Position numbers and translations under genes: made by a program. Under the pieces are notes generated by a model. It did no database searches. It saw only the letters and a program-made list of their open reading frames with translations, and was not told the DNA's origin. Positions 30,997 to 33,831 of a DNA stretch of 43,343 bases are shown piece by piece; the stretch's first letter is position 1, and each line of letters opens with the position of its first letter. This DNA is from an uncultured Clostridia bacterium (GTDB lineage Bacteria; Bacillota; Clostridia; TANB77; CAG-508), in the NCBI GenBank assembly GCA_947594985.1, contig CANQEK010000002.1:1-43343 (forward strand). The letters are read 5' to 3'.

Positions 30997-32124
30997 TTAT
31001 TTCAATTTTATTTTTTCTACTTTATTTAAATAATTATTAATACCTTTTTTAAATGCCTCCTCTAAAGGTTTTAGTGAAACTTCTTTCTTTCTTTTATAAA
31101 CAATAAATTTATTTATAAGCATTTTTTTAAGTTCATCTTCTAGTAAATCTGGATTAATATCTATTATTTGTTCCATTAATTTTTCCGTTAGTTCTCTTCT
31201 TTCTTTTCTATCTTCTTCTACTCTTACTTGTCTTTTTTTATTTCTTAACGGAGTATTAATAGTATTAAAAATTAAATACTTTATAAAGAAATCTTCATCA
31301 ACTAATTGTTTTACAATACCGTTATCTTCATATTCTTTTTGACGTTTTACTGCTTTATTTTCAATATCCATATGATCACTTAAATAGTTCCATAATTTAA
31401 CAGCATATTGGAAATTCGTATTTTTAAGCAAAACATTTGTCATTTTAAGAGGAGCTTTAACTGGAGTTGCTTTTTTATCATCTAATAATTGAAAAATATT
31501 TGTAGCTTTTAATGTCCTCATAGTTTTTTGTAATTCAATAAATTTATCTTTAGTGTTTTCAGATTTTTCTTGATCTTCAGCACTTTGTGAAATATATTCA
31601 AAATTCAATTTAATTTTTTCTTTTCTCAATCTAGTAGTTGCTTGATAAACAGCCTTTTGATGATGTTTTCCTTTAAATGGATTTTTATTATCCATACCTT
31701 TTGTTCTTAAATAAACAAAATCATCAACTAATTTTATTAATGTATATAGAAATCTATTTTCATATGTAAGAAAACTTTCTTCTTTGTAAGCATTTAATAT
31801 TTTAGATGGTTTTACATCTTGTGTTTCTTCATCAAATTCTGAAATTAAATTTGTATTTTTAGATAAATGTTTAATACTTTCAACTGTAACTTTTTTTATT
31901 AACTCTATTTTTACAACTTCTTCTTCAGTAATAATTTGTTTATTTGGATTTCTTAACGCTTTTTCCAAATATGGAGCTGTAAAAAGAACTTGATCAATCC
32001 ATTCATCATTTTCAATAATTTCATTTTTACTAATATCCAGCATTAATTTTGAATCAATTTTATTTATAAATAACGGCATATCTGGATTATGTTCATTTAT
32101 TAAGTTTAAAACATTTAAATTCAT
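30997..32124 (-). CDS. McrC N-terminal/DUF2357-like protein without a recognisable nuclease domain (375 aa)
   Basis: It sits downstream of the McrB-like gene, in mcrB-mcrC order. ESFLTYENRFLYTLIKLVDDF resembles the McrC/DUF2357 (D/E)-T-x-x-NR-h-h-K-x-h-h segment (E. coli McrC EDTLANRIIKSTLAIL). The C-terminal third is a K/E/R-rich helical tail, and I see no D...(D/E)xK nuclease core. RBS GGAGAC. Confidence 0.45.
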   Translation of the reverse strand: MNLNVLNLINEHNPDMPLFINKIDSKLMLDISKNEIIENDEWIDQVLFTAPYLEKALRNPNKQIITEEEVVKIELIKKVTVESIKHLSKNTNLISEFDEETQDVKPSKILNAYKEESFLTYENRFLYTLIKLVDDFVYLRTKGMDNKNPFKGKHHQKAVYQATTRLRKEKIKLNFEYISQSAEDQEKSENTKDKFIELQKTMRTLKATNIFQLLDDKKATPVKAPLKMTNVLLKNTNFQYAVKLWNYLSDHMDIENKAVKRQKEYEDNGIVKQLVDEDFFIKYLIFNTINTPLRNKKRQVRVEEDRKERRELTEKLMEQIIDINPDLLEDELKKMLINKFIVYKRKKEVSLKPLEEAFKKGINNYLNKVEKIKLK

Positions 32125-32280
32125 AATTAGTCTCCATTCAATTTAAAGTAAGACAATTTTTAATTTCTATATTTATTTTTCTTATTTATTAAATAAGATT
32201 GTTCTTAAATTTAATATTTACTATAAGATAATTTTAAAATCTTTATTTACCAATATGACCATTTTAAAACTATTATTCTA

Positions 32281-33831
32281 TTAAGACATTTTCTTAAGTC
32301 TTAATAAAAATTCTATACATTCTGCCATTCTACCTTTTCCAAAATGATCATCTAAAAATTGTATGTAACCATCTATTTCATCTCTTATTAAAGCTAAGTT
32401 TAATCCTTCAAATTTTCTTAAAACTTTTTTAGCCATGAAATAATCAACTGCTTCAGTTTCATCACCACCACAAGCAACATATACTGGTACGAATTTTCTC
32501 ATATGTTTAACAATACGGTTACCAAAAGCAACTCTAAAATGTTGTATTGTATAATCATCCATTTTTTCAATATTTTCTAATATTTCTTCAGACATTGCAT
32601 AATCTTCCATAGCTTGATTAAATAAATTATCAAGATATGAATAATTAACGTCCCAAGCGTCCGCTGGTTCTGGCTCAAATGGAACACCTTTTTCGTTAAT
32701 ATCTATAGGCATAGCTCTATCATAAACCTTATCTGTTACCATGAATGTAGAATCGTCGTTATTGATTGTTCCTATATACCAAACATTAGGTGGAATTTGT
32801 AATTTTCCTTTTATTAATTTTTTAGGATCTGATTTCCAAGTACTTTGTACAACCTCAATTAACCATTCTTTAGTATCATGCATTTCTAGTATTGATAGCA
32901 TTTCTGCAAAATAATACTCAACACGGGCAAGGTTCATTTCGTCTAATATTACAGTAAATATTTCATCTGTATATCCAGCTGTATATAAATAACTTAAGAA
33001 GTCTGTTTCATTAAATTTTTTAGTAAACTCATTTAAATATCCAAAAATATCAGTTCTATCTCTCCAAGATGGTTGTACTGAAGCAACACAAGATGGGTGT
33101 TTTACAAATTTACCCCAAGCAAGTGATATAGATGTTTTACCAGTACCAGAAATACCTTGTAGAATAACAAGTTTAGTTGACGCTATAGCTGATACAAATA
33201 ATCTTATCATCTTTTCACTATAATATAGTTTTAATTTATGTGCTGCAAAATGTCTAAATTGATGACAAAATTCTGGAAGTGTAAAAGAATTTTTATAATC
33301 TTTTTGCTTGTAATTTGCATATTCTTCATCAACCATAGTTAATTTTGAAAATCTGCTTTCTCCTACATCAATTGGTGCATCTTCATCCTGATCTTGTCCA
33401 GAAGCATCCGAAGAATAACCATTTCCATCTACACCAATGCCTTCTGTGTTTAAGCCTAGTTCAGGATTTTTCATATCTAAAATTTTCAATTTCTCATCAA
33501 CTAAGGTTTCAACTTGTTGATTTAAAGAATCTATTTCTTTTAGTAACTCCTCTTGATCAAGAATTTTCTTTCTCCATTTTGTGTGTTTTTTCCAAAATAG
33601 GACAATTAACAAAATTATTATACCTATAACAGCGGCTAAAGCTGTTATAGCAAGTCCAACTAAAATCCATTCAGATACAGAAAAGTCCTTTTCATAATGA
33701 TCTATTATACCTTTATATTCTGGAATATTAAAAGTTTTAGTCATTCCAGTAAATATTGCTTTTAGAACATCTATAAAGCCTGAAAAAAATTGATTTAAAA
33801 ATTCATATAAAAATCTTCCGTATGTTTCCAT
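32281..33831 (-). CDS. McrB-family (AAA_5) AAA+ NTPase with N-terminal transmembrane anchor and short coiled coil (516 aa)
   Basis: TM segment WILVGLAITALAAVIGIIILLIVLFW, then heptad-like KKILDQEELLKEIDSLNQQVETLVDEKLKIL. Walker A LQGISGTGKTS. VQPSWRDRTDIFGY. Walker B with McrB-type continuation VILDEMNLARVEYYFAEMLSILE. YIGTINNDDSTFMVTDKVYDRAMPI resembles the McrB MNxxDR segment. RBS GAGGAG. Confidence 0.65.
   Translation of the reverse strand: METYGRFLYEFLNQFFSGFIDVLKAIFTGMTKTFNIPEYKGIIDHYEKDFSVSEWILVGLAITALAAVIGIIILLIVLFWKKHTKWRKKILDQEELLKEIDSLNQQVETLVDEKLKILDMKNPELGLNTEGIGVDGNGYSSDASGQDQDEDAPIDVGESRFSKLTMVDEEYANYKQKDYKNSFTLPEFCHQFRHFAAHKLKLYYSEKMIRLFVSAIASTKLVILQGISGTGKTSISLAWGKFVKHPSCVASVQPSWRDRTDIFGYLNEFTKKFNETDFLSYLYTAGYTDEIFTVILDEMNLARVEYYFAEMLSILEMHDTKEWLIEVVQSTWKSDPKKLIKGKLQIPPNVWYIGTINNDDSTFMVTDKVYDRAMPIDINEKGVPFEPEPADAWDVNYSYLDNLFNQAMEDYAMSEEILENIEKMDDYTIQHFRVAFGNRIVKHMRKFVPVYVACGGDETEAVDYFMAKKVLRKFEGLNLALIRDEIDGYIQFLDDHFGKGRMAECIEFLLRLKKMS

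Follow-up and report, generated by a model that had tools for sequence, protein, structure and literature searches.

The stretch of DNA analysed here, hereafter the window, comprises 43,343 nucleotides (nt) of contig CANQEK010000002.1 (GenBank assembly GCA_947594985.1), from an uncultured Clostridia bacterium of a gut Bacillota lineage low in guanine plus cytosine (GC). The window is about 25% GC, and every gene lies on the minus strand. We examined two adjacent genes at 30997-33831, which encode a McrB-like GTPase of 516 amino acids (aa) and a McrC-like partner of 375 aa, together with the chromosomal cluster around them, in which genes for five signal peptidases of the SipW type accompany those for about ten proteins that are signal-anchored or secreted (Table 1). 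An initial annotation, drawn up from the letters of the sequence, had described the pair as a membrane-anchored McrB-family NTPase and a nuclease-less partner inside a secretion or fibre locus; the positions of both open reading frames (ORFs), which are separated by 156 nt, their strand and all of the motifs it quoted were found as given. Judged by the published definition, the pair is a member of CoCoPALM, a class that has already been named yet is experimentally uncharacterised.

The McrB-like GTPase and its McrC-like partner

Both structure-database searches and conserved motifs place the 516-aa protein in the McrB family, as the initial annotation had proposed. Escherichia coli McrB (6hz4, 6ut6 and 7vsr) was its sole match among 177,635 PDB sequences (phmmer, E=2e-5), and a profile built from 31 sequences of the GTPase family again retrieved only E. 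coli McrB from the PDB (E=1.6e-5). The PADLOC candidate model PDC-M26A also matched (4e-38); a literature search returned no paper mentioning PDC-M26. The stretch VILDEMNLARVEYYFAEMLSILE occupies residues 294-316 and GTINNDDS...DKVYDRA residues 354-373. Invariant in 113 representatives clustered at 50% identity were G226, G229, G231, K232, D297, N300, R303 and E305, and further along the protein T355, N357, D359, S361, T362, R372, G437, R439 and D463. The hallmarks of AAA_5, which had also been claimed, were not borne out: Pfam AAA_5 (PF07728) gave no match to the 516-aa protein at E≤0.1, with weak matches in more distant relatives. The initial annotation had itself named such a missing match as a result that would refute its proposal. 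We consider it outweighed by the direct McrB matches and the invariant motifs, and therefore retain the McrB assignment.

A major branch of the McrB GTPases is defined by the NxD signature, a shortened and strictly conserved N-x-D with D or E as its usual next residue (Bell et al., 2024; PMC11090510). In the 113 representatives, the position after the invariant N357-x-D359 was D (the commonest residue) or E with four exceptions (three Q and one G). By this signature, the 516-aa protein is a member of the NxD branch.

Ahead of the GTPase domain, the protein carries a transmembrane (TM) anchor in place of a DNA-reading domain, again as first annotated. Kyte-Doolittle analysis with a 19-residue window revealed one hydrophobic segment, at residues ~50-84, and no DNA-binding family matched residues 1-159, which comprise an amphipathic segment, the TM helix, a further helix and an acidic linker. 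Lysine and arginine are more frequent after the TM segment (six in 15 residues, within the flank KKHTKWRKK) than before it (two), and by the positive-inside rule this excess on the C-terminal side places the GTPase domain in the cytoplasm. Column conservation, computed over 79 orthologues, was high in the first 20 residues, in the juxtamembrane helix and in the GTPase domain, and lowest in linker residues 141-160 (0.34). The N-terminal amphipathic segment scores as a second TM helix in some relatives. Among relatives at large, we distinguished three N-terminal classes: proteins of 450-580 aa with one or two TM helices, which include the 516-aa protein; proteins with four or five TM helices; and CoCoNuT-like proteins with no TM helix and an extension of 400-570 aa.

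The downstream gene encodes a McrC/DUF2357-like protein, and this part of the initial annotation also stands. Pfam DUF2357 (PF09823) matched residues 56-157 above its gathering score (8.5e-9; 35.4 bits against 23.3). We found 2329 homologues of 372-377 aa and 51-80% identity, and their alignment showed an invariant TYEN.F motif and a PLKMTNVLLKN..FQY.V.LW.YL block. In hhalign, residues 82-255 aligned with residues 154-327 of a 608-aa CoCoNuT-like DUF2357 protein, both motifs included, so the McrC N-domain spans about residues 41-255. Within it, the predicted hairpin at residues 150-185 recalls the pore-inserting finger of McrC in the 6hz4 and 6ut6 structures.

Where the canonical protein has its nuclease, the partner ends in a charged tail of 120 aa with a conservation of 0.30-0.48 and no significant heptad signal. 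The tail is all-helical in an AlphaFold2 (AF2) model of low confidence, built from a 37-sequence alignment (mean predicted local distance difference test score, pLDDT, 57). When this model was compared with the PDB by Foldseek, no match reached E≤0.001, and in view of this and of the low pLDDT we used the model for secondary structure only. The nuclease had been claimed to be missing from the partner, and none was detectable: the 375-aa protein had no nuclease match in Pfam or PADLOC, the family profile had 0 matches in the PDB at E≤10, and no conserved D...(D/E)xK motif was seen in the family alignment. Considering secondary structure, length and the lack of profile matches, we conclude that the nuclease is very probably absent from this protein. 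No TM segment was found in the partner by Kyte-Doolittle analysis. Scans of the pair and of the cluster genes with Pfam, NCBIfam and PADLOC likewise recovered no nuclease, HEPN domain or other recognisable effector. In a homologous locus from Ruminococcus sp. CAG:488 (L065; loci from other genomes are numbered with the prefix L), the tail of the McrC-like protein is a coiled coil of ~370 aa, rich in K, E and A.

A different membrane-embedded variant of the NxD clade was observed in locus L086 (1986-5447). There, a relative with four or five TM helices at its N-terminus (624-631 aa) accompanies a 520-aa McrC-like protein with a C-terminal CPxC...CxxC zinc ribbon; two acidic lipoprotein-like genes lie nearby, and no SipW gene.

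Conservation and genomic neighbourhood

We assessed the conservation of the pair in a scan with one genome per species, which found at least 596 species genomes with a relative of the GTPase. The synteny counts given here refer to the best 80 of these, with 50-77% identity to the 516-aa GTPase. They are gut and rumen metagenome-assembled genomes (MAGs) labelled Clostridia, Bacilli, Tenericutes, Mollicutes or Erysipelotrichaceae, and include one closed 1.55-Mb chromosome. In all 76 eligible loci, the McrC-like gene came directly after the GTPase gene (median gap, 14 nt), and a SipW-type gene lay within 5 kb in 59 of 61 loci. More specifically, the counterpart of the SipW gene at 30242-30829 was the next listed gene after the McrC-like gene in 67 of the 80 genome loci. 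On the other side, the gene for a 339-aa protein stood directly upstream of the GTPase in about half of the genomes (35/71).

The GTPase was the best conserved gene of the cluster. Its median identity to the window protein was 59%. The McrC-like protein reached 36%, while the SipWs ranged over 32-44% and the secreted proteins over 27-29%. Full-length homologues of the GTPase at 70-88% identity numbered more than 8000, one of which is recorded at NCBI as 'hypothetical protein [Clostridium sp. 28_12]', and an exhaustive search of 1.84 billion representatives at 50% identity gave 8267 relatives (746 at E≤1e-30). The second-best conserved member, with a median identity of 50%, was the 241-aa protein at 24049-24774. 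A reciprocal search that started from this protein, in metagenome contigs with at least 8 kb on each side, recovered the McrB/McrC pair in 23 of 24 loci.

The association is not confined to one gene order or base composition. Loci of 42-50% GC (L064-L080, for instance a record titled Ruminococcus sp. CAG:488) show it in another arrangement, namely secreted, secreted, SipW, McrB-like, McrC-like and a 2391-aa surface protein, and a relative of 34% identity (L091) has the order secreted, secreted, McrB-like, SipW. The pair, the SipWs and the secreted proteins are thus linked in at least two deeply separated lineages, of ~24-30% and ~42-50% GC, and the linkage has survived rearrangement. The full-length membrane type was not found in 72,556 plasmids, in which 283 records matched the GTPase domain only at ≤38% identity, nor in 50,697 phage records, which gave two weak partial matches, both in fecal phage contigs.

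The SipW half of the "SipW/TasA" flanks named by the initial annotation is well founded, since the genes at 30242-30829 and 35491-36015 both exceeded the TIGR02228 cut-off. The positions of the catalytic Ser, His and Asp are retained in four of the five SipW paralogues, including 30242-30829 and 25762-26493. The conserved catalytic His is missing from the fifth, at 36771-37487, as is the TKGD.N motif, and this paralogue is probably inactive, as judged from its residues. It has been kept in 56 of the 80 genome loci, which suggests that it is a non-catalytic, peptidase-like subunit. The frameshifted SipW gene consists of ORF 27091-27306 (TM part, 71 aa) and ORF 26661-27167 (catalytic part, 168 aa), and locus L001 has an intact 198-aa orthologue of it.

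The TasA half of that claim was not established by sequence. About ten N-terminal signal anchors are interleaved with the SipW genes, and they end in motifs such as STYAKY, NTYALY or STYAWF; the proteins that carry them form weakly related paralogue groups. The 244-aa protein at 36033-36767 had only four homologues among 5.8e9 proteins. Its AF2 model (pLDDT 66) comprises a TM helix and a beta-sandwich, for which Foldseek ranked CNA/RspB adhesins on top, followed by archaeal CanA (3e-3), pilins and, weakly, the TasA fibre (0.023). On this modelled fold, calling the secreted proteins TasA-like is plausible, the resemblance being that of a generic adhesin- or pilin-like beta-sandwich. A profile of the 241-aa protein family had no PDB or NCBIfam match. 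Orthologues of that protein share the invariant motifs AYTFY.EN.G and W(L)EG.DPDC, and a 309-aa secreted protein of L065 ends in a similar W.EG.D.DC motif; the 241-aa protein may be a structural core subunit of the putative fibre.

Comparison with known systems and possible role

In the original description of CoCoPALM, an NxD McrB GTPase carries a fused FtsB-like region of TM helix and coiled coil, has signal-peptidase neighbours and is accompanied by a McrC homologue that is usually fused to a coiled coil as well (Bell et al., 2024; PMC11090510). That paper gives the class three sentences and defers it to a forthcoming publication. Given so short an account, we judged membership from the published definition and not from a shared accession. 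The text supplementary files of this eLife paper held no CoCoPALM, FtsB or SipW entries, and a full-text literature search found no later paper using the term CoCoPALM and none linking McrB with TasA or SipW. The window pair agrees with the definition in its NxD GTPase, its N-terminal TM helix followed by a short helical stretch, its adjacent McrC homologue and its signal-peptidase genes; relatives such as L065 add the long coiled coil on the McrC homologue. It differs in that its own coiled coils are short or doubtful, with no heptad signal above shuffled sequences, and in that FtsB homology was not detected by hmmscan. The initial annotation had suggested a module of a new kind; with the combination already described and named, this claim to novelty is reduced.

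The better-known relatives of the pair are the CoCoNuTs (CnuB/CnuC) and E. coli McrBC. With the former, the pair shares the NxD clade (35-45% identity in the GTPase domain) and a DUF2357 core with common YENR and TN[VI]L..LW motifs; in CoCoNuTs, too, the PD-(D/E)xK domain of the McrC homologue has often been lost or inactivated. The N-extensions of CoCoNuTs are long, soluble coiled coils, and these systems 'always' occur with HEPN or other nucleases and helicases (PMC11090510), whereas the window GTPase is TM-anchored and the cluster genes scanned include no nuclease or helicase. A CoCoNuT-like locus on a Rhodoferax plasmid (L092), for example, encodes a Upf1-like helicase, a 489-aa protein without known function, a 788-aa AAA_5 protein and the 608-aa DUF2357 protein. 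Likeness to E. coli McrBC (6hz4, 6ut6 and 7vsr) extends to the AAA+ core, Walker A and B, the sensor-1 Asn, the DEMNxAR motif, the B-then-C gene order and a McrC N-domain with a predicted long hairpin. In contrast to E. coli McrBC, the window GTPase has NxD for NxxD and a membrane anchor but no DNA-binding N-domain, its partner lacks PD-(D/E)xK, and the context is a chromosomal core secretion operon and not a restriction locus.

The neighbourhood itself resembles the fibre operons tapA-sipW-tasA of Bacillus subtilis and sipW-bsaA-bsaB-bsaC of Clostridium perfringens (background from PMC11580942). In all of these, a SipW-type peptidase, that is, of the endoplasmic reticulum/archaeal type, stands beside signal-anchored secreted beta-sandwich proteins, and the window signals end in T-Y-A-x-F/Y-like motifs. 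The window differs in having five SipW paralogues as opposed to one, and its secreted proteins show no detectable sequence similarity to TasA or BsaA. To our knowledge, neither model operon contains an NTPase.

From this context, we suggest, with a probability of roughly 0.6, that the pair is a GTP-driven, membrane-anchored regulator or motor for the SipW-processed surface-fibre system. By homology to E. coli McrBC, the GTPase domains would form a hexameric ring on the cytoplasmic face, with six TM helices holding the ring at the membrane, and the DUF2357 domain of the partner would insert into the ring and stimulate GTP hydrolysis. The genomic context further suggests that the GTPase cycle might be passed on to the membrane SipWs and their signal-anchored substrates, the route being either the TM and juxtamembrane helices or the McrC-like tail. 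In place of positioning a nuclease on DNA, the transmitted cycle would gate or drive the steps in which a surface fibre or adhesin is cleaved, released and polymerised, which would make the pair a non-defence exaptation of the McrBC module. FtsEX-type signalling ATPases, in which FtsE is an ABC ATPase, pass a cytoplasmic NTPase cycle through TM and coiled-coil elements to an extracytoplasmic enzyme. For GTPase control of SipW cleavage they offer a mechanistic analogy only, with no homology. A broader proposal, which we hold with evenly divided confidence, is that the McrBC GTPase-activator module, so far known solely from the restriction of nucleic acids, has been exapted as a nuclease-free membrane GTP switch or motor that forms an obligatory, vertically inherited part of multi-SipW fibre or adhesin assembly throughout a large uncultivated radiation of gut Bacillota.

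Should this role prove true, the pair would be a clean case of a defence-type machine, McrBC, put to use in building the cell surface. The assembly of SipW/TasA-like fibres would gain a step that depends on energy or a checkpoint, and an NTP-dependent step would enter a class of fibres (TasA-like, assembled by donor-strand exchange) thought to form without cytoplasmic energy. Most carriers are MAGs from the human gut, the rumen or the gut of other animals, and belong to low-GC Bacillota whose genomes are small. Given its abundance and the standing of the GTPase as the most conserved gene of the operon, the system likely matters for surface building in these uncultivated gut bacteria. The counts presented here also put numbers, for the first time, on the conservation, gene content and boundaries behind the CoCoPALM label.

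Several observations weigh against a fibre-assembly role or against the evidence brought for it. The function is assigned wholly through guilt by association. Since a cytoplasmic GTPase cannot directly power donor-strand polymerisation outside the cell, the coupling step is speculative. The secreted proteins matched no TasA family in Pfam or NCBIfam, and single-sequence PDB searches of two of them were empty. No SipW was detectable near the more distant TM-anchored relatives L086, L088 and L089. With regard to the pair itself, AF2 modelled the McrC-like protein poorly (pLDDT 57), so that the absence of the nuclease is argued from secondary structure, length and profiles. While the TM helix of the initial annotation is clear, its short coiled coil is doubtful: the best heptad window, residues 92-119, holds about four heptads at most, and its score, on a crude home-made scale, was no better than that of shuffled sequences. 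The isolated N-terminus had no hmmscan match to FtsB, DivIC or FtsL. Finally, the nearest non-membrane relatives are CoCoNuT-like and occur in defence-type contexts (L092), and the profile that matched best is that of a PADLOC defence candidate.

The last two points would fit an envelope-associated module against phages or other mobile genetic elements, in which a tethered McrBC derivative senses infection and responds without a nuclease, for example by remodelling or shedding surface receptors via the SipWs or by abortive membrane damage. We regard this as unlikely but worth retaining on account of family ancestry: the GTPase belongs to an NxD clade whose non-membrane members are of CoCoNuT type, one of them on the Rhodoferax plasmid beside the Upf1-like helicase, and the match to PDC-M26A and the two partial hits in fecal phage contigs point the same way. 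The pair and the cluster genes scanned, however, hold no nuclease, HEPN domain or recognisable effector, and the McrC-like partner matched no PADLOC model. Fixed synteny, vertical conservation in at least 80 species and a GTPase that evolves more slowly than its neighbours are atypical of patchy islands with fast turnover, and the full-length type did not turn up in the plasmid and phage collections. The doubt voiced in the initial annotation that this could be a simple defence island was therefore justified.

Even less probable is a factor for the cell envelope or division, with an FtsB/FtsL-like N-terminus that targets the GTPase to the divisome or wall and with SipW neighbours that serve general envelope biogenesis. 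It would accord with the FtsB homology reported for the N-domain (Bell et al., 2024; PMC11090510), with sub-threshold FtsL_2 matches in two orthologues (0.0043 in L026 and 0.057 in L065), and with the behaviour of the GTPase gene as a conserved core gene. The 516-aa protein itself matched none of FtsB, DivIC and FtsL, though, the cluster contains no division or peptidoglycan genes, and the conserved partners are SipWs and fast-evolving secreted proteins, not divisome components. A decayed type IV restriction remnant that landed in a secretion locus by chance is highly improbable: the canonical DNA-binding N-domain and PD-(D/E)xK are both missing and three genes of the window are frameshifted, but both ORFs of the pair are intact, the catalytic GTPase motifs are invariant in the 113 representatives, full-length homologues at 70-88% identity number more than 8000, and the partner has kept both its length (372-377 aa) and its place (76/76). 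On the conservation data, we rejected both such a remnant and the insertion of a defence island.

Other features of the cluster and the window

The coordinates of the pair and of the other cluster members are collected in Table 1.

Table 1. Genes and sequence features of the McrB-like/McrC-like cluster in the window.
Feature	Position	Strand	Basis or remark
McrC-like partner, 375 aa	30997-32124	-	Pfam DUF2357
Charged helical C-terminal tail, residues 256-375, where canonical McrC has PD-(D/E)xK	31000-31359	-	
DUF2357 (McrC N-domain) core, residues ~41-255	31360-32004	-	Pfam, hhalign, family alignment
Near-invariant PLKMTNVLLKN..FQY..LW motif	31420-31452	-	Family alignment
Predicted long beta-hairpin, residues 150-185	31570-31677	-	AF2, low confidence
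TYENRF motif	31750-31767	-	TYENRFL at residues 120-126
McrB-like GTPase, 516 aa (CoCoPALM 'McrB' component)	32281-33831	-	PDB and PADLOC matches, homologues
McrB-type AAA+ GTPase domain and lid, residues 160-516	32284-33354	-	Conservation 0.77-0.97
NxD-D signature	32752-32763	-	N357-x-D359-D
Walker B (VILDEMN)	32932-32952	-	VILDEMNLAR at residues 294-303
Walker A	33133-33156	-	GISGTGKT, residues 226-233
Variable acidic G/D-rich linker, residues 121-159	33355-33471	-	Conservation minimum
Juxtamembrane helix with heptad-like pattern, residues ~88-120; may be a short coiled coil	33472-33570	-	Conservation 0.66-0.69
Transmembrane helix, residues ~55-80	33592-33669	-	Kyte-Doolittle
Amphipathic N-terminal segment, residues 1-30, METYGRFLYEFLNQFF...	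33742-33831	-	Conservation 0.70 (residues 1-20)
Four signal-anchored proteins: 270, 457, 241 and 228 aa	21717-25574	-	TM and motifs STYAWF, SAYAW
SipW-type peptidase with ~60-aa poly-acidic C-terminal tail	25762-26493	-	38% identity to 30242-30829, E=1e-32
Frameshifted SipW-type peptidase, two overlapping ORFs	26661-27306	-	Pfam Peptidase_S26 5e-5
K/E-rich cytoplasmic protein, 554 aa, recurrent cluster member	27325-28989	-	19 loci, median 27% identity
Signal-anchored secreted protein, paralogue of 36033-36767 (E=1.5e-7)	29144-29863	-	
SipW-type signal peptidase, directly downstream of the pair	30242-30829	-	NCBIfam TIGR02228 2e-21, 76.5 bits against a cut-off of 51.85
Cytoplasmic protein, 339 aa, directly upstream of the GTPase	33864-34883	-	No known family
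Signal-anchored secreted protein, weak paralogue of 36033-36767	34902-35498	-	N-terminal TM; syntenic in 41 loci
SipW-type signal peptidase, upstream cassette	35491-36015	-	TIGR02228 6.2e-16 (above cut-off); Pfam Peptidase_S24 1.8e-6
Signal-anchored secreted beta-sandwich protein, 244 aa, putative fibre/adhesin subunit	36033-36767	-	AF2
Degenerate SipW-like paralogue with ~60-aa S/T/K-rich C-terminal tail	36771-37487	-	Weak SipW matches
Upstream cluster genes for two signal-anchored proteins (150 and 299 aa) and a giant surface protein	37524-43343	-	

Pfam, NCBIfam and PADLOC assigned no family to the 339-aa and 554-aa proteins or to others of the cluster. The giant surface-protein gene (39054-43343) changes frame near 42460 and continues past the end of the window; in L001-L005, the orthologous neighbour is a DUF285 protein of more than 4600 aa. 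Giant surface proteins with DUF285 or beta-helix-like GG repeats, their lengths running from 2391 to more than 4600 aa, recur beside TM-anchored McrB/McrC-like pairs (L088 4475-17554; L089 4988-10342; L065 13796-20971; L001 1-4809; window 39054-43343). Distant tandem pairs without SipW, in the order McrB, McrC-like, McrB and then a 669-aa YDG-domain protein, likewise have a neighbour longer than 3000 aa. What the TM-anchored pairs have in common may be the large surface proteins and not SipW.

The secreted-protein gene at 29144-29863 is co-directional with the operon in the window and in the closest relatives, L001-L005. In most species, its homologue is encoded on the other strand and converges on the operon (at ~13800-14500 in L010, L026 and others), and the difference points to a local inversion in the lineage of the window. 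Between this gene and the SipW gene at 30242-30829 is a 378-nt intergenic region (29864-30241, minus strand) in which a 167-nt unit is repeated 1.8 times at 95% identity. The same region contains seven copies of GCGAAAAGTRG (with at most one mismatch), all inside 29877-30235, where 0.47 would be expected in the whole window. This motif was not found in 92 related loci and may form a lineage-specific regulatory or binding-site array. On the other side of the SipW gene, in the spacer between its start and the stop of the McrC-like gene, an AT-rich 26-nt unit, ATTAATTTTTTTCTATTAATATTTAA on the plus strand, is repeated about four times with 84% identity (30872-30974). Most other genomes have a spacer of just a few nt here, or the genes overlap.

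Promoter and terminator scans were uninformative in DNA of 24% GC. No intrinsic terminator was predicted between 26000 and 38500, which is consistent with long transcription units, and an Rfam scan of the window gave 0 matches.

Three apparent frameshifts were noted in the window: in the SipW gene at 26661-27306, in RecG (10954-13003, split into 586 and 112 aa) and in the giant surface-protein gene near 42460. Either the assembly contains homopolymer errors in this AT-rich DNA, or the genes show real pseudogenisation. Two regions, 13076-16464 and 19941-21545, hold large cytoplasmic ORFs of 846, 278 and 534 aa for which Pfam gave no match. Many genomes have the 534-aa protein again at the border of the cluster, in either orientation.

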